From positions 32,001 to 96,000 of the forward strand of contig CAVPZX010000008.1 of assembly GCA_963710375.1 (NCBI GenBank): DNA of 64,000 nt, given 5' to 3'. Position 1 is the first letter of the stretch. The number at the start of each line of letters is the position of its first letter. Source of the stretch: Nitrospirota bacterium (GTDB taxonomy: Bacteria > Nitrospirota > Thermodesulfovibrionia > Thermodesulfovibrionales > Dissulfurispiraceae). The translations under genes and the position numbers were made by a program. This document shows, in pieces, positions 1 through 54,436 of this stretch. The notes under the pieces are model-generated. The model did not search any database. It was given only the letters and a program-made list of their open reading frames with translations, and was not told where the DNA came from.

Positions 1-21
1 GGAGAAGAGCGCGCCAGAAAC

Positions 22-525
22 ATGGCAGTTGTTTACGACAGAAAAGGCCGTCCGGATGCGACTTATACAAAAACGCACTCTTTTCCCCTGTCCCAGGAGG
101 TTGAGCGGTTTATTGAAGGGACAGAGAGGGTCGTCTTTAATATTGATGCAATGCCTTCCAGCGTCTTTATCTGCTATGATTTGAGGTTCCCTGAGCTTTT
201 CAGGGATGTTGCAGGACGGGTAAAGGCGATATTTGTAATAGCCAACTGGCCTTCCAAAAGAAAGGACCACTGGGAAACACTGCTCAAAGCGCGTGCGATA
301 GAGAACCAATGTTTTGTGATAGGAGTAAACCGCACCGGAGTTGACGGCAACGGTATCGTGTATCCAGGCGCTTCCCGAATTTTTGGTCCATTTGGAAATA
401 CCGTCTGTTCCGGCGATGATACCGAAGAATTCATAACCTGCGAGTTCGATCCCGTCGAGACAGACCGTGTACGGTCTGCATTTCCTTTCCTTTTGGCCCG
501 TGAACAATCACAAAAGGAGAAATGA
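22..525 (+). CDS. Carbon-nitrogen hydrolase (nitrilase/amidohydrolase) family protein, probably 5'-truncated by the window edge
   Basis: Motifs YTKTH, ICYDLRFPE, ARAIENQCFVIGVNRTG. Confidence 0.9.
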   Translation: MAVVYDRKGRPDATYTKTHSFPLSQEVERFIEGTERVVFNIDAMPSSVFICYDLRFPELFRDVAGRVKAIFVIANWPSKRKDHWETLLKARAIENQCFVIGVNRTGVDGNGIVYPGASRIFGPFGNTVCSGDDTEEFITCEFDPVETDRVRSAFPFLLAREQSQKEK

Positions 526-532
526 CCTGCGT

Positions 533-1225
533 ATGACGACCCAAAAAAATATTAATAAGATAGCGATATTGGCTGTAATCATATTACTGATCGCCGCATT
601 TAAGATCTTTGGGCTTGAACAATATCTCAGCCTTTCCTACCTGAAGGCCTCTCAGGAAAAGTTCGCGCTTCTGTATGCTGAACATAAGATACTTGTAATA
701 GCCGGTTATATGATTATTTATATTATTGTCACGTCGTTATCATTGCCGGGAGCAGCAGTGCTCACCCTGGTGGGAGGGGCGCTCTTTGGTTTAGTGGCCG
801 GGACACTTATCGTATCTTTCGCCAGCACCATAGGTGCGACCTTTGCATGCCTTGCCTCACGGTTCGTATTAAGGGATTGGGTACAGTTGAAATTCGGCGA
901 CAAACTGTCGGCTGTTAACAAAGGCATAGAAAGGGAAGGCGCCTTTTATCTCTTCACGCTTAGATTAATTCCGATCTTTCCTTTCTTTGTCATCAATCTT
1001 GTCATGGGTCTGACAAAATTACCTTTGCTGACATTTTATTGGGTATCGCAATTGGGGATGCTTCCGGGTACTATGGTTTACGTGAATGCGGGGAAAGAGC
1101 TTGCAAAGGTCAATTCTCTATCCGGCATTCTGTCTCCCGGATTGATCTTTTCATTTGCGCTCCTCGGATTATTTCCGATAGCAGTCAAAAAGATAATGGC
1201 GTTTTATAAACGGGATAAAAGTTAA
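533..1225 (+). CDS. TVP38/TMEM64 (DedA/VTT domain) membrane protein
   Basis: LSLPGAAVLTLVGGALFG and LRLIPIFPFFVINL motifs; start moved from 467 to the ATG at 533. Confidence 0.88.
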   Translation: MTTQKNINKIAILAVIILLIAAFKIFGLEQYLSLSYLKASQEKFALLYAEHKILVIAGYMIIYIIVTSLSLPGAAVLTLVGGALFGLVAGTLIVSFASTIGATFACLASRFVLRDWVQLKFGDKLSAVNKGIEREGAFYLFTLRLIPIFPFFVINLVMGLTKLPLLTFYWVSQLGMLPGTMVYVNAGKELAKVNSLSGILSPGLIFSFALLGLFPIAVKKIMAFYKRDKS

Positions 1226-1236
1226 AAAAATATTGA

Positions 1237-1416
1237 GGGCTCGCGAATAAATAACTTGCACATTGATGCATCTCAGATTTAGGCCATCTTTGCCAGATCC
1301 TCAGTCGCAAAATCCTCAACGTAGCTATGCTACGCCTGCGGTTTTGCTCAGTCGGATCATCCAAATCTGACCCAAATCTGTGCGCCTGAATGCACAAGTT
1401 ATTTATTCGAGAGCCC
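1237..1416. mobile_element. 180 bp palindromic MITE-like element, copy 1
   Basis: Terminal inverted repeats GGGCTC(G/T)CGAATAAATAACTTG; the whole element is an imperfect palindrome around CGTAGCTATGCTACG; homologous copy at 9937-10118. Confidence 0.85.
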
Positions 1417-2649
1417 TACGGAGAGATCAAAGGTCCTGAGAGCGTCTTCATAAATGCCTCGATCTGTAAAAGTTCTTCATCAGTCAGGTCCTGATGCTCC
1501 ACTTGAGTGCTTGAACTCATCCTGTAGAAAAACATTACATCTTCCAGGGACTTGGATTGCCCCGCATGCATATAGGGTGGCCGCTCTGCAACATTTCGTA
1601 ACGTTGGGGTCTTGAATGCTCCTATATATTTGCTTTTGTCCTTGTCTATGAACCTCAGTTCGCTGCATTGATCAGGCTTGGCATCGCTGTATTTACCGAG
1701 ACAGTTGAACTCATCAGAAAGCACCTTGCCAATGCCCTCTGCCCTGCCCTTATCCTTTCCATTGTCCAGCCCAATGTCGTGAAACTCGCCGTTCGTAAAA
1801 AGCGGACCCATGTGGCAGGTGATACATTTGGCTTTTCCGATGAATAGTCGCAATCCTTCGACTGCATCGCGGCCCATTGCCTTGTCCGCAGCCGCCTGGT
1901 CGTTCCTGAGTACTGCATCGGCATACAGGTCGAACGGCGCGGGAGAAGGCACTATCCTCCTCACATAAGCTTCGATCGCCTTGCCGATATTCGCGTAGAC
2001 CCTGTTGACAGCGTACCGGTCAGCCGGTTTCATCGCCTTCCAGAGCTTGAGCGCAACTGGATTACCTGTTCCAGGGCTTGCCTTCGGAGGACAGACTCTT
2101 GTGGGTTATCTTCGGGAGACTGCCGAATATCTCAGTGTATTCGTTCTTGTATTTGTCGATTATCAGGTGTGCGCAGTAAGAACGGGTAATGCCATGCTCA
2201 GGAACGCTCTCGATCGGTCCAATGGCCTGAGACCATAAGCTGTCCTTCCTGCCATCCCAGAAGAACCAGGACTGATAGGCTACACCGATGAGCGGCATGG
2301 TCCTTCGAGTATTGGTGCCCATGCCCCTGGCAAGGGCAAATCTGTCAGTGAATGAATATTCCGGAATATGACAGGTGGCGCATGATATCTTCCCGTTGGC
2401 GCTGAAACTTTTATCGAAGAAAAGCTTCTTCCCAAATTCTATCGCCTTGGGGTTATCTGCATAAGCGTTCGACGGGTCAGGGGGCAGCGGCGGAAGCGAG
2501 GCAAGAGAGAGGGAGCGTATCACATTCTTGTCTTCCTCGCTCCACTGATGAATCTGTTGGAGGTCCTTGTCCGCGGCCATGCCAGTGCTGCCTGCGCCCA
2601 TAATCGTAAAAGAAATGAGGACAAGCGTCAGAAAAGTAAACCGGGCCAT
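1416..2649 (-). CDS. Di-heme cytochrome c peroxidase/MauG family protein, split by a +1 frameshift near 2095
   Basis: ORF 2062-2661 has a signal peptide, CATCH and FFWDGR; ORF 1416-2033 has CITCH and FKTPTLRNV..RPPYMH; the alternative frame VCPPKASPGTGNPVALKLWKA joins the two; GGAGG RBS before the ATG at 2649. Confidence 0.9.
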
Positions 2650-2679
2650 GATAACCTCCAACTCCGCTTTTGCATAAAA

Positions 2680-3459
2680 TTACTTCAACATGAGGTTGAA
2701 GGAAGTATTGTCGGTTTTTCCGCCAGCGTTGACACTGACGTTGACCACCCACCATCCGGACATACTGAACTTCATTCCTTCCACAAGGTAGGTACCATCG
2801 CCGTAGTTCTTTGTGACCTTGGGCTGTGTAGGCATACCATGACCGTGTTCCGGCATGGTCCCGCTAACTGTAATCTTCGCATCCTTGACCGGTTTGCCGT
2901 CAGCAGTCTCAACCTTGAGTTTCCAGGACTGGAGCTTGTTAACCGGCACAGTCTGGAGATCACTTGTGTATGTTACCTTGAATGTTCCTGCCTTCGAAAC
3001 CATCGTCTTTGCGTAAGCAGCATCAGAGGTCGGCTTTACCATAGCGCTTGCGGAGCAGTGCTTGCATTTGCAGTCTTTACCACAATTGCAGCCACCCTTG
3101 CCGTCACTCTTGCAGTTGCACTTTCCCTTGCCTGTTTTGCAATGTTCGCACTTGCAGTCCTTGCCGCACTTGCAGCCCTTGCCGTCACTCATACAATTAC
3201 AGCCTTTGTCCCCTGCTTTGCAGTCGCAGTTTCCCTTGCTGCACTTTCCGCACTTGCAATCTTTCCCGCACTGGCAACCATTTCCGTTTTTACCGTTCTT
3301 GCAGTTGCAATCACCCTTGTCTGTCGTGCAGTTAGCGCATTTACAATCCTTACCGCAGTCGCATTTTGCGGCGGCATCGACCGTTCCTATTATCGGCGCA
3401 CATGTCATGGACCCGATAAAGAGAACGGCAAGAAGAATGACTCCAAATTTTTTCAGCAT
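2680..3459 (-). CDS. Exported protein: Cys-rich metallothionein-like repeat region fused to a YtkA/FixH-like domain
   Basis: N-terminal hydrophobic signal; residues 33-135 hold 28 Cys; C-terminal MPEHGHGM...GTYLVEGMKFSMSGWW resembles YtkA/FixH; GGGGG RBS-like run upstream. Confidence 0.82.
   Translation of the reverse strand: MLKKFGVILLAVLFIGSMTCAPIIGTVDAAAKCDCGKDCKCANCTTDKGDCNCKNGKNGNGCQCGKDCKCGKCSKGNCDCKAGDKGCNCMSDGKGCKCGKDCKCEHCKTGKGKCNCKSDGKGGCNCGKDCKCKHCSASAMVKPTSDAAYAKTMVSKAGTFKVTYTSDLQTVPVNKLQSWKLKVETADGKPVKDAKITVSGTMPEHGHGMPTQPKVTKNYGDGTYLVEGMKFSMSGWWVVNVSVNAGGKTDNTSFNLMLK
3055..3363 (-). repeat. Four tandem coding repeats CxCGKDCKCxxC with CxC-containing linkers
   Basis: CDCGKDCKCANC, CQCGKDCKCGKC, CKCGKDCKCEHC, CNCGKDCKCKHC. 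Confidence 0.95.
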
Positions 3460-3516
3460 AATTACCCCCCTTTAATTATGATTGTATAATTGTAAAACAG
3501 GACACCTTATTTATAG

Positions 3517-3550
3517 GTAGAAGTATACTCTACAACAACAAATATTGCAA
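3517..3550 (-). promoter_or_regulatory. Sigma70-type promoter with an inverted repeat over the -10 box
   Basis: TTGCAA (3550-3545), 17 bp spacer, TATACT (3527-3522); imperfect palindrome GTAGAAGTATACTCTAC at 3517-3533. Confidence 0.6.
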
Positions 3551-3641
3551 TAAACTGGGTGTATGCAAGTCAGACATTACGGGGTTGTTTTTCTGCAGGG
3601 GGTGCCCAAGAAGTCGGCAGACTTATTGAGGAAGAGGTGAG

Positions 3642-3676
3642 CGCCGGGATTAGATCTGTCTCAGCCCATCCCGGCG
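3642..3676. other. Intergenic inverted repeat (possible hairpin)
   Basis: CGCCGGGAT...ATCCCGGCG, no clear U-tract. Confidence 0.3.
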
Positions 3677-4067
3677 TTAGCTATATTGACGGTTATCGCA
3701 ATATCTGACGCAAAGGTGCCTGAAGGTGTGATTATATCTTATATGTAATTTATTTCCCAGGAAATTGGAATTAATCCACATACATGCTGTTTAATAACCC
3801 TCGGAAATCCCAATAAACCAAGAAGATAACACATTGTCTTGCCTAGTATAATTCTTGCATGATAGTCAGTTGAGGATAAGACATGCGACCACAGAAAAAT
3901 AGGAGGGAATACTGATGAGCTGGTTATGGCGTTTATGGTTTTGGCTGATGTGCGAGGGCGATAAGGTTACACCGGCAACCACAAGCATAGCGCTGGACGA
4001 CGACTATTCGCCCGTTCCGGTACCGCTCAGCGCTGAGTATAATTACTACTTTGTCGAGGACAAGGAC

Positions 4068-5435
4068 TTATAGCGCGCCCTTACCAGTAAGAACGATCCG
4101 GATCGTCCGAAGTAATATGACGAGATCAAGGGTCAGGCTCCTGTTCTTGATATAGTAGAAATCGTACATTAGCTTCTGACGTGCATCATCGATCGAATTG
4201 CCGTAGCGGTGATTGATCTGCGCCCATCCCGTGATCCCGGGCGAGACCATGTGGCGTTCAGAGTAATAAGGGATCGCTTTCACGTACTTCTCAACCAGGC
4301 TCACCGCCTCCGGCCGCGGCCCGATCAGACTCATATCTCCTTTTAACACATTGATCAGTTGGGGTACTTCGTCGATCCGCATTTTACGAATCAGTTTTCC
4401 AACCCGCGTTATACGATTATCTTTGTTGGTTGTCCAGTGGACATTGTTCTTGTCTGCATCCTCGATCATGGTCCTCAGTTTCCAGACGAGAAAAGGTTTG
4501 TTCCCCCTGCCGATCCGATACTGGGCATAAAATACCGGCCCCCCTGAATCGAGCTTGATCAGAAGAGCGACGAGGGGAAGCAGGGGCAGGGTCAGACATA
4601 AACCGGCGCTGGCGAGTGCAATATCTATCGAGCGCTTGGCATACCAGAAGTAGCGCTTACCTTTAAGGCTTAGTTCCAGGATGAACCAGTTGTCAGTCAA
4701 GTAATCAATAGGTACCTTGCCGGTAATCTCCTCTATCACGTTTATGAAATTGAAAACCCGGACCTTTATCTGCATGCATTGGAGCAGGAGGTTCATCAAA
4801 TCATCATCGATGGAAGCGGTTGCAACAATGACATGATCAACATCCCTCTGCTGGGCGATCGATACAAGGTCCTGTATGCTCCCGAGATGCGGCATCCTGT
4901 TCTTTGCATAGGTCCCCGGTCTATCAGACACATAGCCCACGACTTCGGCACGAAGATATACCCGTGAAGTTATAAGCTGTGCAACTTCTGTACTTCGTTT
5001 GCCATCGCCAACAATGAGGACCCGCCAAAGCGTGGACGAACGAATGTTCTTAGTGATGATATAACGAAAAAGGACAATAATGATGAAAGAAAAAAGATAA
5101 AAAAGAATAAATACAGCACGTGGCACCATCTCCCGGAAAAAAAAGAATGTGAATGTCAACAGAATTGAACTTAGCAAAAGGCCGAACCCTATGGTTGCTA
5201 TCTGATATAGAAACTGGAACGGCGTCTTGTGCAGGGTGTAAGCGTCGAGAATAAAAAAAAGTGTGACTGTGCCTGCCACAAGGATAGAAAAACCCCAGTG
5301 ATAGTTCCAGACGAGACTGAAAGTGAATGGAGCTTTGTGGCCGACAAGGACCGCGATGATGAAAGATACGAGCATCGCCGCGATATCGCTTATCAACAGC
5401 AATGCTCCCTTTTCTTTGATATATGTCTGCAGCAC
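4068..5435 (-). CDS. Polyprenyl glycosylphosphotransferase (priming sugar transferase)
   Basis: N-terminal TM helices; KLRTM, RITRVG, DEVPQLINVLKGDMSLIGPRPE, PGITGWAQ. Confidence 0.93.
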   Translation of the reverse strand: MLQTYIKEKGALLLISDIAAMLVSFIIAVLVGHKAPFTFSLVWNYHWGFSILVAGTVTLFFILDAYTLHKTPFQFLYQIATIGFGLLLSSILLTFTFFFFREMVPRAVFILFYLFSFIIIVLFRYIITKNIRSSTLWRVLIVGDGKRSTEVAQLITSRVYLRAEVVGYVSDRPGTYAKNRMPHLGSIQDLVSIAQQRDVDHVIVATASIDDDLMNLLLQCMQIKVRVFNFINVIEEITGKVPIDYLTDNWFILELSLKGKRYFWYAKRSIDIALASAGLCLTLPLLPLVALLIKLDSGGPVFYAQYRIGRGNKPFLVWKLRTMIEDADKNNVHWTTNKDNRITRVGKLIRKMRIDEVPQLINVLKGDMSLIGPRPEAVSLVEKYVKAIPYYSERHMVSPGITGWAQINHRYGNSIDDARQKLMYDFYYIKNRSLTLDLVILLRTIRIVLTGKGAL

Positions 5436-6380
5436 TTAAGTAATATCTCCAGGTCTGTAGTGCTCACTGAACCATGCGTAGGTCATCGCAAGACCATCAC
5501 GGAAAACTATTGAATGGCGCCATCCGAGGGCCCGAATTTTAGTGACATCGAGTGGACGACGGGGGGTCCCATCAGGCTTGGTAGCGTCCCAAACGATTTC
5601 GCCTCCATAACCACTGATCTCTTTTATCAAAAGAGCAAGATCCCTAATGGAAATATCATCACCCGTGCCGACATTGATCAACTCCCTGCCATCATAATGT
5701 TCCATTAAAAACACAGCTGCATCCGCCGCATCGTCCGCATGAAGAAACTCCCTCATCGGGTTCCCTGTTCCCCACAGGGTAACGGATTTTGCACCTTTTA
5801 TCTTTGCCTCATGAAATTTATGTATTAACGCCGGGATAACATGAGAATTTTCAAGGTCAAAATTATCATAGGAACCATAGAGATTAGCAGGCATGCACGA
5901 AATCGCATTAAACCCGTATTGATCACGCATCGCCTCGCACAATTTTATTCCCGCGATCTTTGCGATTGCATAAGGTTCATTGGTAGGCTCGAGCGAACCG
6001 GTCAGCAAGTATTCCTCTTTGACAGGAACAGGCGCGAACTTTGGATAAATACATACGCTGCCCAGGAAAAGTAATTTCTTTACGCCACATCGAAAGGCTG
6101 AATTAATGACATTGTTCTGCACTTGCAGATTCTCGTAGATAAAGTCGGCGCGATACGTATTATTCGCATTTATACCTCCGACCTTAGCTGCTGCCAGAAA
6201 AACATAATCAGGCCGTTCCAGCTCAAAAAATACCTCGACATCAGCCTGCCGTATCAGATCAAGTTCTCCGTGTGTTCTGCCGATTATATTTTCATAACCG
6301 GACTTCCGGAGTTTTCTGACTATCGCGGAACCAACCAGTCCTTTATGCCCCGCAACATAAATCTTTGAATTCCTATTCAT
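5436..6380 (-). CDS. fcl: GDP-L-fucose synthase
   Basis: AGHKGLVGSA, LAAAKVGGI, YAIAKIAG, KPDGTPRR; start moved to MNRNSK. Confidence 0.95.
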   Translation of the reverse strand: MNRNSKIYVAGHKGLVGSAIVRKLRKSGYENIIGRTHGELDLIRQADVEVFFELERPDYVFLAAAKVGGINANNTYRADFIYENLQVQNNVINSAFRCGVKKLLFLGSVCIYPKFAPVPVKEEYLLTGSLEPTNEPYAIAKIAGIKLCEAMRDQYGFNAISCMPANLYGSYDNFDLENSHVIPALIHKFHEAKIKGAKSVTLWGTGNPMREFLHADDAADAAVFLMEHYDGRELINVGTGDDISIRDLALLIKEISGYGGEIVWDATKPDGTPRRPLDVTKIRALGWRHSIVFRDGLAMTYAWFSEHYRPGDIT

Positions 6381-7595: not shown

Positions 7596-10010
7596 TCACT
7601 CTTTTTTGAATGTCAGCGCATCCAGCCTGTTGCGTGCATCGAGGTTAGCAGGGTCTATGAGCAGCACTTTTCTATATTCCTCTATTGCCCGGTACGTGAT
7701 CCCGAGCTGCTCATACAATGCTGCGCAGACCAATTGCATTTCCGTGTCATCCGGGAAGTGAACAAGTCCCTTCTGTATAATGTCAAGGGCAGTATCGTAA
7801 TCTTTCTGTCCCCTAAAGAAGTCGGAAATCGCGTAAACATATGATTTACTCGCAGACTTATCACTGTCTATGAAATTAAGGGCTTTGAGATAGGCCTGTT
7901 CAGCCAATGAGTCGTTGCCGGTCCGGTGAAGATACGATCCGAAAGTAATATACGGAAACATCCTTTGCGGCAGTGCCTTTTGTATTTCTTCGTCATTGTA
8001 ACCATTAAGCACCAGAAGCGTTATATACTCACGTGTTTGTTCAGGTACAAGGCTCATCGAGAGCGCTATATTCTTAAGCGCTTCTTCTCTTCTGCCTTGC
8101 GAAATCAGCCATACGGCATATGTCCTGTGTCGCAAAGCATTCCTGCTGTCATACTCGGTTCCCAGACGAAGCAGACGCTCAGCCTTATCGAAATCCGAGC
8201 GGGCTGCATATGCAAACCCGAGGTCCTGCAAATATCCGCCGTTCATACAATCCTGCTCAAGTGCCTTTGTATAATAGCGGAGCGCACCGTCGTTGTTCGA
8301 CAGCAGCACCTCCATTTTACCGACAGCATCCCGGTATCGCGCATCAAAAGGGTCACATAGAGATGCCCAGTAAGCCCTTTTCTTTATCTTGAGCAATTCA
8401 TTCCGAGTATGTTGTTCATCGAGACTGAAGCTCTTAACTCCGGAGAACAAGATTTCAGCAGCCAATGCGCCTATATTTACGGTTGTTATTACTATCAATA
8501 GCACAACAGCTGCTCTGCGCAGTTTTGACAACGGGAAGGGTTGTATTGTCTCGAGATAAGTTGAATTGAGCTTCTCCCGCATCCGGGTATGCGTCGCCGA
8601 GACGAGTAAGCCGCAGAGAAAAAAGAAATAGAGCCCGTTTGAACCTATATGGAGGTTAAAATCAACAACGCTGTGAATCATGATTGCGAGCAATCCGGCA
8701 GCGCTTCCGATAGAGAGATATATAGAATAGGATTCTTTTCGCTGCAGAAAGGTTTTGTATGAACGATAGAGCACGGAGCAGAGGAACCATCCGGCAAGCA
8801 AAAAGGCAATTATACCCCCCTCAGTCAAAAGCTCAATATAGTCGTTTTCGGCATGGTCGGCAGTAAGTTCCCCGGGGAATGTCCGGTATCTTTGATAGCT
8901 GCTGACAAACGTCCCGAACCCTGTTCCGGTCAGAGGGAAATCCCGTATCAAGCGCGTGCTGTCGTTCCATAGTGTAGGCTTGATTTCAGTAATATTACCT
9001 TGGACATCCCTAATGTTCTCAAAACGCTGCACAATAGGTTCCCACCCTAACCAGGTCACAACGAGGAACAAAGTTATAAAGAATGCGATAATAAACATTC
9101 CATTTTTATAGCGCCCCTTTTTCCGGGCAACCATTAAACTGAAAAAGATCATCGAAAGGCAGAGGCTTACTACACCGCCGCGCGACAGGGATAGGAAAAC
9201 CGAGGCCGCAACAAGTATTGAAAAAAATCCAATAAGTATGTGGCGGTCCGTATCTTTACTGGTAAAGATATTCAAAAGACGCTCACGAAACGAACGGTAT
9301 TTGACCTTCGGTTTGAAATAGACAAAAATGCTCAGTATAATGGGTAGGACCATTTCCATGAAACCCGCATAGTGGTTTTTGTTCACAAAAGGACCAAATG
9401 GGTGGCCCCCCTGCGTTAGATTTCTGATCCAGTAAAGTTTACCGTTATAAAAAAGATACTGGAAAATTCCCAGAAGGGCGAGTCCGGATGAGAACGTGAT
9501 GACCACTTTCACTGTTTTCCTGAGAAGCTCTTTTCCGGCAAGCAGCTGCACCGTAACAATATAAAAAGAGAGATATGCTGTAAACCTGAACCATTCCAGC
9601 ATAGTCGCTTTTTTATTGATCGAAAGTGTCATCCAATTCACGGGTTCGACACTCCCTATAGTTTCGGCATAAACTTTATAAGTATTGGGAGAAATAATGT
9701 GCACTATCCCAGCCGGCAGGGGAATAAGCTGTATAATGCAATATGACCAGAGGGCAAACAATGGGATGATCCCCGGGACCTTGTAGAAAAACTGCAGGCC
9801 TTCGTTACGCTCCCTGCACAATAAAAAAAGCGCCCACAGAGAACACCCCTCCATAACGGTCAACGACCATTGCTCCACTGTCCCAAAGGCAAGCGGAGAA
9901 AAGATCAGTAGAAAAATAAAAAATGCGTAACTCTTAGGGCTTGCGAATAAATAACTTGTACCTTGATGCATCTCAGCTTCGGGGATCAGCTTTGCCCGAT
10001 CCTCCATCAC
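7596..10010 (-). CDS. O-antigen ligase (Wzy_C) family membrane protein with C-terminal TPRs; present N-terminus derives from the inserted repeat
   Basis: FGPFVNKNHYAG, SLSRGG, GTGFGTF, HAENDY, HSVVDFNL; TPR-like C-terminus. Confidence 0.88.
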   Translation of the reverse strand: MMEDRAKLIPEAEMHQGTSYLFASPKSYAFFIFLLIFSPLAFGTVEQWSLTVMEGCSLWALFLLCRERNEGLQFFYKVPGIIPLFALWSYCIIQLIPLPAGIVHIISPNTYKVYAETIGSVEPVNWMTLSINKKATMLEWFRFTAYLSFYIVTVQLLAGKELLRKTVKVVITFSSGLALLGIFQYLFYNGKLYWIRNLTQGGHPFGPFVNKNHYAGFMEMVLPIILSIFVYFKPKVKYRSFRERLLNIFTSKDTDRHILIGFFSILVAASVFLSLSRGGVVSLCLSMIFFSLMVARKKGRYKNGMFIIAFFITLFLVVTWLGWEPIVQRFENIRDVQGNITEIKPTLWNDSTRLIRDFPLTGTGFGTFVSSYQRYRTFPGELTADHAENDYIELLTEGGIIAFLLAGWFLCSVLYRSYKTFLQRKESYSIYLSIGSAAGLLAIMIHSVVDFNLHIGSNGLYFFFLCGLLVSATHTRMREKLNSTYLETIQPFPLSKLRRAAVVLLIVITTVNIGALAAEILFSGVKSFSLDEQHTRNELLKIKKRAYWASLCDPFDARYRDAVGKMEVLLSNNDGALRYYTKALEQDCMNGGYLQDLGFAYAARSDFDKAERLLRLGTEYDSRNALRHRTYAVWLISQGRREEALKNIALSMSLVPEQTREYITLLVLNGYNDEEIQKALPQRMFPYITFGSYLHRTGNDSLAEQAYLKALNFIDSDKSASKSYVYAISDFFRGQKDYDTALDIIQKGLVHFPDDTEMQLVCAALYEQLGITYRAIEEYRKVLLIDPANLDARNRLDALTFKKE

Positions 10011-10118
10011 AAAATCCTCAACGTAGCTCTGCTACGCCTCCGGTTTTGCTCAATCGGATCAGCCAAAGCTGACCCAAATCTGAGCGCCTTAATGCACAAC
10101 TTATTTATTCGCAAGCCC
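9937..10118. mobile_element. 182 bp palindromic MITE-like element, copy 2, with TTA target-site duplication
   Basis: TIR GGGCTTGCGAATAAATAA / TTATTTATTCGCAAGCCC; TTA at 9934-9936 and 10119-10121. Confidence 0.9.
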
Positions 10119-10826
10119 TTAGACGGCATGAAGCTCCAGTCCTGTTATCACTGCTTCGGGATTTGCGACCACCAGTTGCAATGCACGCTCCCTGCCGATG
10201 ATCTCTTCTGCAATCTTCACACCTTTGGAGAGGATAGGAGGCCTCCATCCGCAGGAATGGGCATCAGTTGCGATACACCCTACTACACCCCTGCGTAAGA
10301 GATATAAAGCGCATTCCCTGACATCGGGTCCGAATTCTCCGGTCAGACTTTCCGCGGTGATCTGCACAGTGACGTTAGCATACAGCAGCTCAAACAAGAA
10401 CTCCGGATTTTTTATTACTGATGCATTGCGCTCAGGATGGGTGATAATAGGAAGCAATCCTTGAAGGCTTATATTAAAGAGAATGTCTTTTGCGTTTTGA
10501 GGAATGTGAGTATGCGGAAATTCGATGAGAATGTAGTTAGTTTCACCAATAGTGTAGTCTTTTATCAGTGAGGGATTGAGGAAGGCATTAACATCAGCAC
10601 CAGGGAGGACCTTCACCGGAATGTCCAAAGCTTGAAGATGCCTGTTCAAGTCGGCCACTCCTTTTTTGATAGCCGATACGGGATGCACGGTGTCCTTTAC
10701 ATGCGGGGTCGCTACTATGGTGGTTATCCCGTCTTCAGCGGCAATCCGTGCCATTTGTATTGACTCCCCTATGCCGGATGGTCCGTCGTCAATCCCGGGA
10801 AGTATGTGACAATGTATATCGATCAC
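10119..10826 (-). CDS. CpsB/CapC family PHP tyrosine phosphatase
   Basis: MIDIHCHILPGIDDG, ATPH, THPERN, ATDAH. Confidence 0.93.
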   Translation of the reverse strand: MIDIHCHILPGIDDGPSGIGESIQMARIAAEDGITTIVATPHVKDTVHPVSAIKKGVADLNRHLQALDIPVKVLPGADVNAFLNPSLIKDYTIGETNYILIEFPHTHIPQNAKDILFNISLQGLLPIITHPERNASVIKNPEFLFELLYANVTVQITAESLTGEFGPDVRECALYLLRRGVVGCIATDAHSCGWRPPILSKGVKIAEEIIGRERALQLVVANPEAVITGLELHAV

Positions 10827-31355: not shown

Positions 31356-32515
31356 CGTACAATTTGAGAGTTAGCTACCTCACTTAGAATATTTCCCCAT
31401 CGTTCCTGCCACCGCTTGATGCTGAAGGCTCTCTGTGAAGCTTCCCACCCGGATTTTTGCATCCTGAGCCTTTCTTCAGGGAAGTCTATAAACCTGAGCA
31501 GTGCGTCAAGGATTGCCCCGTGGTCAGGCTCACACAAACGGCCGTTGAAGCCATCGATGATCTGGGTTATGGTTCCACCCATATTTGTTGCGACCACTGC
31601 ACATCCGGCAGCCATCGCTTCAAGCACCGAAAGACAAGTCGCCTCGCCGCATAATGACGGGATAACGGCAATGTCATGTTCGAGGTGAATCTTCAAGGCA
31701 TCCTCTGTTTTGTACGAGGTGACCGTAACGCGCTTCTCGCCTGAAAAGTTGTCTCTCAGAAATCCCTCGTCAGGACCCTCACCGGCAAGCGTTATTTGAA
31801 GGTTGGGGCGAAGCGTCAAAAGCCGCTTAAAGACATCAGCTATGACGCGTGTCCCTTTCTCCGGAACCAATCTCCTGGCAAAGATAATCCTTACAGGCAG
31901 GTCCCCATCTGCATTTTCGCGGCGAGTGTCCCACACGGCCACAGGAGCTGGATTTGGATTGTAGAAAAGACGCCCCTTGACATTAGGCCCCCGAAAGCTC
32001 CTGTACCAGTTCAGAAAATAAAGGTCTACCGCCACCCGGTTGTGACAGGTCTCGAACCTTCGCAGTCCCCGCAACTGGCAGCGATACCTGAAAAGTTTCT
32101 CACCCATCGCTGAATAATAAACGCTCTTTCGGGTGAGCAGTTTAATGTCGGCATCCCAGGCAAGACCATTTTGCACACAGATAGCGAGGGGATTGTCGTT
32201 TCTTACAGAAAAGAAGTCCGCTGCAAATATTTCGAGACGTTCGTCAGTCCCTGAATTCTTCCGTGCCACATCCCTGAAAAGCTGCACAAGTCTCTTGTTC
32301 GGCATCCCCCTACGAGGATAACCGGGGATTCCAACCACGCGTGTATTCCCGTAACGACTCTCGAACGCATGTCCCGCGCATTGGTAAACAACCACCTCAT
32401 GGCCCAAACTTTCAAGAAGAGGACAGAGATGGCTGATAAGTGTGCCAATGCCACCGCCACCTACGCTCACCTCGTCGTCTTTAAGGAACTGTATGAAATA
32501 GATATCGGCCTTCAC
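31352..32515 (-). CDS. Glycosyltransferase family 4
   Basis: RRLVPEKG, EATCLSVLEAMAAG. Confidence 0.9.
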   Translation of the reverse strand: MKADIYFIQFLKDDEVSVGGGGIGTLISHLCPLLESLGHEVVVYQCAGHAFESRYGNTRVVGIPGYPRRGMPNKRLVQLFRDVARKNSGTDERLEIFAADFFSVRNDNPLAICVQNGLAWDADIKLLTRKSVYYSAMGEKLFRYRCQLRGLRRFETCHNRVAVDLYFLNWYRSFRGPNVKGRLFYNPNPAPVAVWDTRRENADGDLPVRIIFARRLVPEKGTRVIADVFKRLLTLRPNLQITLAGEGPDEGFLRDNFSGEKRVTVTSYKTEDALKIHLEHDIAVIPSLCGEATCLSVLEAMAAGCAVVATNMGGTITQIIDGFNGRLCEPDHGAILDALLRFIDFPEERLRMQKSGWEASQRAFSIKRWQERWGNILSEVANSQIVR

Positions 32516-51664: not shown

Positions 51665-54338
51665 CTACGTAGCTCCGCAACATTTTTTGTATTTCTTCCC
51701 GCTCCCGCAAGGGCAGGGATCGTTCCTTCCCACCTTCCTATCCTTATGCACCGGCTGCCGCGGCTCATCCCCTGCTCCCCGGTTATACACAAGCCGCTGC
51801 TGACGGGGCAGCTCTTTGATCTCTGCTTCTCCCTCATGCTTTACCTGGATCCTGAAGAGCCTCATCAGGACCTCGTTGCTTATACGGTCAGACATATCGG
51901 CGAACAACTCAAAGGCCTCTTTTTTATATTCCACAAGAGGGTCCTTTTGAGCATAACCCCTCAGCCCGATACCCTCTTTGAGGTGGTCTATGCCAAGGAG
52001 GTGGTCTTTCCACTGGGTGTCGATCACCTGCAGGAGAATCACCTTCTCCATATAGCGAAGCACCTCGGCGCCCGAGTCCTTTTCCTTCTGATCATACAGT
52101 GCCTTCACCGCTGCAGAAATGGTATCAAACAGTTCATTACGGTTTAGCGGCAGGTCAGGCTGAATGTTTATGGAGAAGGTCCCGTAGAGCGCATCCTTGA
52201 GACCGTTCATGTCCCATTCCCCGCTGTCGACATTCTCAGGGCAGAAAACAGAGATGAACCCGTCAATCTCACCATCAATCAAATCCAGTATCCTGTCCTT
52301 CAGAGACTCCCGCTGCAATACCTCCAGCCTGAACGAATAGATTTCCTTGCGCTGCTTGTTCATTACATCATCATATTCGAGCAGGTGCTTTCTGATATCG
52401 AAATTATGAGCTTCCACTCTTTTCTGTGAATTCTCTATTGCCCTCGACACCATTTTGTTCTCAATGGGAATGTCCTCCTCCATTTTAAGGAGATTCATCA
52501 GACCGCTTATCCTGTCGGAGCCGAAAATGCGCATGAGGTCGTCCTCAAGGGACAAGTAAAACCGCGATGACCCGGGGTCTCCCTGTCTTCCAGACCTGCC
52601 TCTAAGCTGGTTGTCTATACGCCGTGCCTCGTGGCGTTCAGTACCGATTATATGGAGCCCGCCTGCGCCGATGACCTGCTGTTTCTCCTGCTCGCAAATC
52701 CCCTTTGCTTTTTGGAGGGCCTCGGCGAACTCTTCTTCGCTGTAATCAGCTTTGTCCTTCAGCAGTTGCCTCGCAAGGCCGTCGGGATTGCCGCCTAGGA
52801 CGATATCAGTCCCCCTGCCCGCCATGTTCGTCGCAATAGTGACCCCGCCAAGCCGCCCAGCCTGTGCAACAATCTCAGCTTCATTCTCATGGTATTTGGC
52901 GTTGAGCACCGAATGCTTAACGCCTTTCTTCTTCAGCAAACTGCTCAGCAGTTCCGATTTCTCTATCGAGGTGGTGCCAACAAGCGCCGGCTGACCATTC
53001 TTATGGCACTCCTCGATCTCCTGTATAACGGCATCGAATTTCGCCCTATGCGTCTTGTAGATCACGTCCGGGAAGTCCGGTCTTATCAAGGGCTGGTTTG
53101 TGGGTATTACCACCACGTCGAGATTATATATCTCGGCAAATTCTGCAGCCTCTGTGTCAGCCGTACCGGTCATGCCTGAAAGCTTGTTGTACATTCTGAA
53201 GAAATTCTGGAAAGTGATAGTAGCGAGAGTCTGGTTTTCGCTCGCAATCTTGACGCCCTCTTTTGCCTCAATGGCCTGGTGCAGCCCGTCACTCCACCGC
53301 CTGCCCGGCATAATCCTTCCCGTAAACTCGTCAACGATGATCACCTCACCGTCTTTCACCACATATTCTACGTCCCTCTTGTAAAGGTGGTGCGCCCTGA
53401 GGCCTTGAAGCACATGATGGACAAGTTCGATATTGGACGGATCATAGAGGTTGCTTACCCCGAGCATGCCTCTCCACTTTAGAGTTGCCGGCGTCGGTAA
53501 GAATGACCGTCTTCAGCTTCTCGTCGATTTTAAAATCAACCTCTGCCTTAAGTGAGGGGACAATGCGGTTTACCTTATAATATTTATCTGTTGACTCCTC
53601 AGAGGGTCCCGATATGATGAGCGGTGTCCTCGCCTCATCGATCAGGATGCTGTCTACCTCGTCAACGATTCCGTAGTTCAGTTCCCGCTGACAGTAATCC
53701 GAAAAATCGTATTTCATGTTATCCCTGAGATAATCAAAACCAAATTCATTGTTGGTGCCGTATGTGATATCGGCGAGATAGGCTTCTTTCCGTTCGCAGG
53801 GCCTCAGGTTGTTAAAGCGCTTGTCATTAGATAGGTATGCCGGGTCGAAGAGAAAAGAAGCGTCGTTCTGAATAACACCCAAGGAAAGGCCGAGGAAATG
53901 ATAGAGATTCCCCATCCACTGGGCATCTCTTTTCGCGAGATAATCGTTCACCGTTATCACATGCACGCCTCTGCCGCCGAGAGCATTTAAATAGACCGGT
54001 AACGTGGCTACAAGGGTCTTACCTTCCCCTGTCTTCATCTCGGAAATCATGCCCTCGTGCAGCACCATCCCGCCTATAAGCTGGACATCGAAGTGCCTCA
54101 TTTTCAAAGTGCGGCGAGACACCTCCCGAACAGTTGCAAAGGCATCCTTCAGGATATCGTCAAGGGATTGGCCGTTCTCCAGCCGGCGCTTGAATTCGTC
54201 TGTTTTTGCCGCGAGTTCAGTATCATTTAATGCGGCGACAGAGGGTTCCAGGGCGTTGATTTCATCTACTACTGCAAAAAACCTTTTGAGTACCCGCTCG
54301 TTCTTCGTGCCAAATATTTTTTTCAAAAAAGCGACCAT
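51665..54338 (-). CDS. secA: Preprotein translocase subunit SecA, +1 frameshift near 53468
   Basis: [56 protein letters not shown]. Confidence 0.97.
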
Positions 54339-54436
54339 GTCTTTTATACTAACAACTAGACTCAATTTCTGCAAGCAATGCAGAACAAGGACGACCCCCT
54401 GCTCTCAGGAGTTCCATCTCTCAGATTAGCCGTTGA

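Follow-up and report, generated by a model that had tools for sequence, protein, structure and literature searches.

Within a 64,000-nucleotide stretch of DNA from a Nitrospirota bacterium (the window: positions 32,001 to 96,000 of contig CAVPZX010000008.1, assembly GCA_963710375.1), two adjacent genes encode a YtkA-type protein, here termed the partner, and a di-haem enzyme of the bacterial cytochrome c peroxidase (bCcP)/MauG superfamily. The pair is real, intact and conserved widely, and represents a variant of the theme of a MauG-type enzyme with a copper partner, with a testable substrate. It is apparently undescribed: as the initial annotation of the window had supposed, no paper describing such a combination was found, and the network and neighborhood supplements of the primary MbnH/MbnP papers may mention the cluster. 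We hypothesize, with a probability of roughly 0.42, that the pair works in the manner of MbnH/MbnP: the enzyme would oxidize its docked partner at or beside a Met/His site, the partner having an unrelated fold and, in some lineages, a Cys-rich arm that may serve as an optional store. Few MauG-type enzymes have a known substrate, and this clade brings an obvious candidate, predicted to bind, across about ten phyla.

Conservation and integrity of the gene pair

The enzyme loci studied are the best 80 of 591 or more genome loci, and come from Nitrospirota, Desulfobacterota, Chloroflexota, Pseudomonadota, Acidobacteriota, Myxococcota, Actinomycetota, Spirochaetota, Deinococcota and Aminicenantes. 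Three lack upstream DNA and are not evaluable; at 71 of the remaining 77 a partner-type YtkA gene adjoins the enzyme gene, upstream in 68 cases (including one natural fusion) and downstream in three. The fusion, at locus L097, is a single open reading frame (ORF) of 660 aa in the order YtkA-YtkA-enzyme. Among 61 related genomes the enzyme clade occurs in 12, and the same 12 hold the partner YtkA (E ≤ 3.4e-28; next-best match 6.2e-11); the partner also adjoins the enzyme in all five cultured plasmid members of the clade, these sets overlapping and including kin and hence not being independent tests. By comparison, a YtkA partner lies within 2.5 kb at none of 12 control loci from elsewhere in the superfamily (MauG, MbnH, PhoX-linked, Met-ligated, and a type that we label iodate reductase and the record labels arsenate reductase). 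The distribution is patchy, since only 12 of the 301 genomes in a phylum sample carry the enzyme clade. Cultured holders, which make the pair directly testable, include Sinorhizobium fredii CCBAU 25509, Polaromonas naphthalenivorans CJ2, Gemmatirosa kalamazoonensis, Cereibacter azotoformans and Ramlibacter sp. Leaf400.

On the minus strand of the window the enzyme gene begins with an ATG at 2649, 30 bp past the end of the partner gene, the spacing given by the initial annotation. The haem motifs and the extra Cys pair that it listed are present, but the gene is broken in the window, which that annotation had not reported: CATCH lies in one frame (2062-2649) and CITCH in another (1416-2033). 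The base at 2095 is absent from the contigs of all four public runs (two studies; one run may be the source sample), and in L150, a metagenome locus with 94% identity, the enzyme gene is intact and aligns with a single gap at 2095. The break is therefore an error of the assembly, and the organism's gene is whole. That it is a pseudogene, as the frameshift in the window and a truncated copy in the relative L022 might suggest, is highly implausible and was rejected: besides the reads without the insertion and the intact L150 gene, both halves are 78-83% identical to intact relatives, and a SecA-like gene in the window is split as well. The N-termini of both proteins, judged by eye, resemble signal peptides, and both proteins are predicted to be exported, as annotated at the outset.

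Two damaged copies were seen among relatives. The truncated enzyme copy (115 aa; L022:5763-6110) stands behind an armed partner in a relative that has two more intact pairs, and another relative has a frameshifted partner gene (L018:6999-7785).

A MauG-type enzyme and a YtkA-type protein

The enzyme matches PF03150 (bCcP/MauG superfamily) with 124 bits against a cut-off of 25.6 and has the two CxxCH motifs and the fold common to the superfamily; it holds CATCH, CITCH and FNCLGKYSDAKPDQC. Its placement with MauG instead of the canonical peroxidases is borne out. A gap-free alignment puts Y375 opposite MauG Y294 and MbnH Y312, and Y375 also aligns to the Met of the canonical enzymes; the His/Met ligation of canonical bCcP is not found, Tyr standing at the Met position in 71 of 71 enzymes. 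W131, Q141, P145, E151, C316 and C328 are likewise present in 71 of 71 aligned sequences (the Gln, Pro and Glu matched to MauG via spacing and PDB titles), and C316 and C328 may form a disulfide. By its Tyr ligand, inter-haem Trp and distal Gln/Pro/Glu, we class the enzyme as MauG-type (His/Tyr), the ligation of enzymes that form bis-Fe(IV) with H2O2 as the oxidant (PMC11892367, PMC6405878). His385, which is invariant among close relatives, was rejected as the haem-2 ligand because only 30 of 71 enzymes in the wide set have it, and because Y375 aligns with Y294. A quick tree with 50 rows sampled the 71 enzymes at every third row and added the read-through of the window, 5 plasmid members, 4 orphans and 16 outgroup proteins, with BthA absent; in it the 34 rows of the enzyme clade group together on a long stem, apart from the Met-ligated peroxidases, with a Shimodaira-Hasegawa-like approximate likelihood ratio test (SH-aLRT) value of 100.

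The clade is also distinct from the named families of this type. For MauG (TIGR03791, cut-off 443.85) the enzyme (P0001) scores 144.2 and five others 125-141; for MbnH (TIGR04039, cut-off 362.85) it scores 133.9, the best being 164; and for the His-Xaa-Ser MauG-like family it scores 103 against a cut-off of 340. Its structural model, with a mean predicted local distance difference test (pLDDT) of 85.3, is about equally far from canonical peroxidases, MauG, MbnH and BthA (template modeling score 0.46-0.57, identity 20-26%). With MauG, which carries out tryptophan tryptophylquinone (TTQ) synthesis (PDB 3L4M), the enzyme shares Tyr at Y294, Trp at W93, the distal Gln/Pro/Glu and a partner predicted on the haem-2 side; unlike MauG, it falls below the family cut-off, has no mau genes among its neighbors and no equivalent of W199, and its clade mostly has Arg at both Ca-ligand positions. 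At these positions, N66 and T275 of MauG (whose Ca site also involves P277), the residues are Arg/Arg in 56 of 71 enzymes, including that of the window; 8 have Lys/Thr, 5 have Asn/Thr and 2 have another combination. R356 sits 19 residues before Y375, matching at the sequence level K444 before Y463 of BthA, where the basic residue replaces Ca, which suggests that most clade members are likely Ca-free; the natural Arg/Arg, Lys/Thr and Asn/Thr variants form a ready series on the role of Ca between the haems. BthA of Burkholderia (PDB 6NX0) is further alike in its His/Tyr haem 2, its basic residue at T275/K444 and two additional Cys that lie after the haem-2 motif and before the Tyr, with a spacing of 12 here and of 15 in BthA, which has a surface disulfide near haem 2; it differs in having Ser in place of the inter-haem Trp (PMC6405878), in its identity of only 20%, and in the dedicated YtkA partner found here.

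These residues bear on the reading that the pair merely detoxifies peroxide, in which case the YtkA protein would be a stabilizing subunit or electron shuttle of no copper role and the arm a disulfide-bonded spacer. The top whole-protein PDB scores belong to canonical peroxidases, neighboring genes are mostly unrelated to metals, and the periplasm can oxidize thiols; the universal Tyr ligand, the invariant Met/His motif of the partner and the make-up of the arm (both below) count against it, and we consider this reading quite improbable.

Partner residues 167-241 match PF13115 (E 1.5e-15; 58 bits, cut-off 25.9), in agreement with the YtkA assignment first made from the sequence; the 28-Cys repeat region and the MPEHGHGM and MSGWW motifs noted at the same time are present as well. 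In the alignment M202, H207, M233 and W237 are each present in 71 of 71 partners and H205 in 70. The YtkA domain is modeled as an immunoglobulin (Ig)-like sandwich (pLDDT 95.3) that comes closest in fold to CrdA, a copper-resistance protein (Z 13.7, root-mean-square deviation 2.0, 101 residues aligned; next match Z 9.1), and a PDB sequence search with the partner gave no real match. The metal of the system is probably copper. The partner thus resembles H. pylori CrdA (PDB 9LL2/9LL4) in predicted fold, and Bacillus CtaK (YtkA) and the YtkA domain of YcnJ in family and Met/His motif (PMC13344008, PMC12362106); unlike CtaK and YcnJ, it is neither a lipoprotein nor a CopD fusion, has specific GL/MPTxP and GWW motifs, and is tied to a di-haem enzyme. 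Other YtkA domains had not been studied experimentally, according to PMC12362106. Twenty tandem partners and the fusion carry a second YtkA domain, and the remaining armless partners of the wide set are bare.

The double Trp, proposed earlier as the site of modification, divides into two unlike residues. At position 236 a Trp stands in 58 of the 71 partners and in none of 23 unpartnered YtkA domains (3 from the same genome and 20 N-terminal tandem domains), whereas W237 also occurs in all the unpartnered domains checked. Judged from the alignment, W236 is partner-specific yet dispensable in 13 partners. A TTQ-type cross-link between the two was considered and is unlikely, because they are direct neighbors in the chain and W237 occurs throughout the family.

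The predicted complex and the role of the pair

Prediction of the complex, which was run on the proteins of a same-genus relative, gave a score of 0.71 against 0.06 for the best control; the score mark is reached by 116 of 157 solved pairs and 2 of 215 mismatched pairs, rough counts here, as a run with its own alignments and with haem included lies outside the calibration of the tool. The runs agree in at least 88% of contacts, and the pLDDT of the partner is at least 88. In window numbering the interface joins partner residues 205-214 and 227-235 to enzyme residues 276-280 (the haem-2 motif), 286-290 and 329-336, the HGHG-L/M-PT loop of the partner packing on the haem-2 CxxCH. Interface columns of the partner are more conserved than the rest (0.76 versus 0.57). 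We know of no solved complex of like kind. The modeled contact agrees with the binding postulated at the start, and the enzyme and the YtkA protein are very probably dedicated partners.

The sequence of events that we favor is drawn mainly from better-known relatives. H2O2 would react at haem 1, and the oxidizing equivalents would be held as bis-Fe(IV) across W131, as in MauG, MbnH and BthA; the YtkA-type partner, docked at haem 2 in the model, would then receive them where they exit at haem 2 and be oxidized covalently. The target would most plausibly be W236, giving a product of the kynurenine type such as MbnP, CorA and MopE contain, and otherwise a Met or His; the oxidation might mature or tune a copper site for periplasmic copper handling, with the 7-Cys modules of the arm as an expandable reservoir of Cu(I) or another soft metal in one Nitrospirota/Desulfobacterota lineage. 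Precedents for such oxidation of a partner are MbnH/MbnP, CorB/CorA and SACCP/MopE of methanotrophs (PMC11951088, PMC3621798). The present system resembles MbnH/MbnP (PDB 6E1C) in that the gene of a His/Tyr di-haem enzyme directly follows the gene of an exported protein, that this protein has a His/Met site and a Trp that could be the target, and that the two are kept as a stand-alone pair. It differs in the partner, which has a YtkA/CrdA-type Ig fold (PF13115) with GWW and may carry an optional 7-Cys arm, and in the enzyme, which falls below the MbnH cut-off, forms a separate clade and has Arg at the Ca-ligand positions.

Several observations weigh against covalent oxidation of the partner, in addition to the calibration of the complex run. 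The residues named for the predicted interface include neither W236 nor W237 (a residue left unnamed being uncertain), enzyme interface residues are no more conserved than the rest (0.63 versus 0.67), and the surface W199 of MauG corresponds to an Ala in the enzyme. W236 is replaced in 13 of 71 partners, and also in two of the five plasmid partners, and the WxW motif is absent from the partner. Six of the 77 enzyme loci have no adjoining partner; among five such orphan genomes searched, two hold a partner elsewhere and three, of unknown completeness, show none. Most flanking genes are not copper-related, and BthA is His/Tyr-ligated yet has no known protein substrate (PMC11892367).

Some of these points fit another scheme, that of a cuprous peroxidase, in which an unmodified partner would bring Cu(I) from the arm to haem 2 and the enzyme would oxidize it at the expense of H2O2. 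Both Fenton reagents would then be cleared under conditions in which multicopper oxidases, which depend on O2, perform poorly. In the model it is the invariant Met/His loop, not the Trp pair, that contacts the haem-2 motif; metallothionein-like modules appear to have joined the pair twice independently (below); no multicopper oxidase was found in the host genome (98.8% complete); and BthA reduces H2O2 using an external donor (PMC6405878). We nevertheless regard the scheme as unlikely: MauG-type enzymes are generally poor peroxidases (PMC11892367), a canonical peroxidase with Met ligation is already present in the host (C4 in the tree), and at L042 a YtkA-multicopper oxidase fusion lies beside the pair.

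Returning to oxidation of the partner, a more far-reaching form of this reading is that the clade is a Ca-free bis-Fe(IV) branch, widespread and undescribed, whose members build a protein-derived cofactor into the YtkA proteins as copper carriers. It would then be the first enzyme to act on the YtkA family, and in some lineages it would be fed by a new type of metallothionein module, exported and with a 7-Cys unit that can expand in tandem; taken as a whole, this is doubtful. If the pair does act on copper in either way, protein-derived cofactor chemistry or periplasmic copper redox handling would extend to YtkA domains, which have barely been studied outside Bacillus.

The cysteine arm, neighboring genes and other features

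The arm spans partner residues 33-135, with one more Cys in the signal region, and consists of four CxCGxxCxCxxC units and four CxC units, which combine into a 7-Cys module. It was first proposed as part of the system, a claim that fails as regards its core: the arm occurs in 3 of the 71 partners of the wide set. From its distribution and repeats, it appears to be an accessory, limited to one lineage and expanding by 7-Cys modules. Among 46 complete armed homologues, 36 have a Cys count that is a multiple of 7 (7 to 42), as tandem duplication would explain. Odd Cys totals in 19 of the 46 complete arms, and a His before the last Cys in 130 of 136 units, suggest metal-thiolate binding better than the full disulfide pairing of a spacer; the arm likely stores a soft metal. 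Longer proteins with the arm are YtkA fusions in 38 of 38 cases, and of 34 metagenome arm loci all 22 with room downstream have the enzyme, the other 12 ending too early. Like metallothioneins of the bacterial SmtA and eukaryotic types, the arm is rich in Cys (27%, in CxC and CxxC), Lys and Gly and lacks aromatic residues; unlike them it is exported and fused, with 1-6 tandem 7-Cys modules, and would represent an exported bacterial metallothionein-like domain. No Pfam or NCBIfam family, metallothioneins included, matched the arm at E 0.1, and the ESM Atlas gave no usable match, which indicates neither absence nor novelty.

Free Cys-rich ORFs of 53-56 aa lie upstream of the pair at 4 of 76 loci (3 Acidobacteriota, 1 Gemmatimonadota), as compared with 1 in fourfold other DNA and 0 in the 12 control loci, and they form a second, independent link of the pair to metallothionein-like peptides. 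An AraC gene is nearby at 9 of the 76 loci. Small exported Cys-rich proteins of another family are also encoded near the enzyme (L022:6431-6811, L036:2420-2860, L083:4509-4841); that of L083 takes the place of the YtkA gene directly upstream of the enzyme, and that of L022 has weak similarity to ExtJ. Two contigs are broken within the Cys arm (L019 at the end of G060:C9, L030 at the start of G060:C14), and CopC and CopD genes lie divergent, about 2 kb upstream of the partner.

Table 1. Features of the gene pair; positions refer to the window, except in the last row, where the locus is given.
Feature	Position	Strand	Remark
YtkA-type partner gene	2680..3459	-	259 aa: signal peptide, Cys-rich arm, YtkA domain
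GGGGGG, strong Shine-Dalgarno-like	upstream of partner gene		
Metallothionein-like arm	3055..3363	-	28 Cys in 103 aa, no aromatic residues
MPEHGHG loop, M202/H205/H207	2836..2856	-	putative Met/His metal site with M233
MSGWW motif, M233-W237	2749..2763	-	W236 partner-specific, W237 family-wide
Di-haem His/Tyr (MauG-type) enzyme gene	1416..2649	-	410 aa without the assembly insertion
Haem-1 motif CATCH (peroxidatic haem)	2368..2382	-	
W131, inter-haem Trp (MauG W93 position)	2257..2259	-	aligned to FWDG motif of solved peroxidases
Distal Q141/P145/E151	2197-2229	-	
One-base assembly insertion splitting the enzyme gene	2095		from four of four read sets and locus L150
Haem-2 motif CITCH (six-coordinate haem)	1812..1826	-	predicted docking side for the partner
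Extra Cys pair C316/C328	1665..1703	-	followed by segment forming the predicted interface core
R356 (MauG T275/BthA K444 position) and Y375 (haem-2 axial ligand)	1524..1583	-	
Free metallothionein-like ORFs near AraC gene	L103:4271-4441, L107:4280-4450, L114:4061-4228, L102:1-159		

Neighboring genes were scanned at the 80 loci (140 flanking proteins, 137 immediate neighbors, with 3 more neighbors scanned separately), and no third recurring gene was found; the commonest neighbor family besides regulators occurs at 6 of the 80. Copper genes flank a minority: CopC/CopD at L089, L030 and L028, NosL at L027 and L031, and, at L092, L104 and L106, cox operons that include a PmoD-like gene (matching PDB 6CPD at E 5.4e-13). 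The host genome has a COX1-family gene, two YtkA genes beside a resistance-nodulation-division (RND) efflux operon, and two other di-haem proteins; no dsrA was found in it. YtkA fusions beside the enzyme (L042:5323-8309, L065:931-2841, L111:5075-5911) comprise YtkA-MetA-like barrel, YtkA-multicopper oxidase and DUF3703-YtkA forms.

This neighborhood bears on a chaperone-adaptor role, in which the partner would deliver copper and position the enzyme on a third exported client, or would aid CuA assembly as CtaK does. Operons of mtoX, SCO1 and mauG and SCO1-MauG fusions exist (PMC5739008), CtaK and YcnJ-YtkA support CuA (PMC13344008), the pair closes the three cox operons with a PmoD-like gene, and 11 of the 12 relatives that hold the module have a COX1-family gene. 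Against this stand the COX1-family genes of 29 of 49 module-negative relatives, the lack of a recurring third gene and the predicted partner site, which fills the haem-2 face; we judge such a role rather unlikely, and a need for haem-copper oxidase assembly is not supported among the 61 relatives. The methanethiol oxidase system mtoX-SCO1/SenC-mauG is alike in that a gene of the copper-chaperone type adjoins a MauG-like gene or is fused to it (PMC5739008), and differs in its chaperone fold and in the conserved client gene that the present loci lack.

The single promoter predicted earlier for both genes did not hold up as evidence: the candidate is one 9/12 match at 3550-3522, the scan gave 3 sites against 8.9 expected by chance, and no upstream motif common to 8 relatives was found. 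No Rfam family matched within window positions 1-6000. The names borne by close homologues suggest an origin in Nitrospirota, class Thermodesulfovibrionia, and the best-matching data sets for the locus are soil metagenomes. A repeat resembling a miniature inverted-repeat transposable element (1236-1417) overlaps the stop codon of the enzyme gene and recurs at 9936-10119; its 34-nt inverted arms are 85% complementary, and it is found at 42 genome loci, 27 of at least 150 bp, with a summed contig depth of up to about 60 times single copy. Converging on the pair from positions 1-1225 of the plus strand are genes for a nitrilase-family amidohydrolase and a DedA/VTT membrane protein, and the repeat could act as a terminator between the convergent genes. 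The nitrilase-DedA/VTT order recurs in L018, and VTT genes lie near the enzyme at 5 of the 80 loci.

Elsewhere in the window, at 51665-54374 on the minus strand, the gene that we take to be SecA-like, and which looks essential, is split into overlapping ORFs of 310 and 600 aa, likely by another assembly indel. Positions 4068-42329 of the minus strand hold a large cluster for polysaccharide biosynthesis and export, labeled mostly from the N-termini of its proteins, with a sugar transferase, GDP-sugar enzymes, a Wzc-like protein, glycosyltransferases, a radical-SAM-like (S-adenosylmethionine) protein and an ATP-binding cassette (ABC) exporter.

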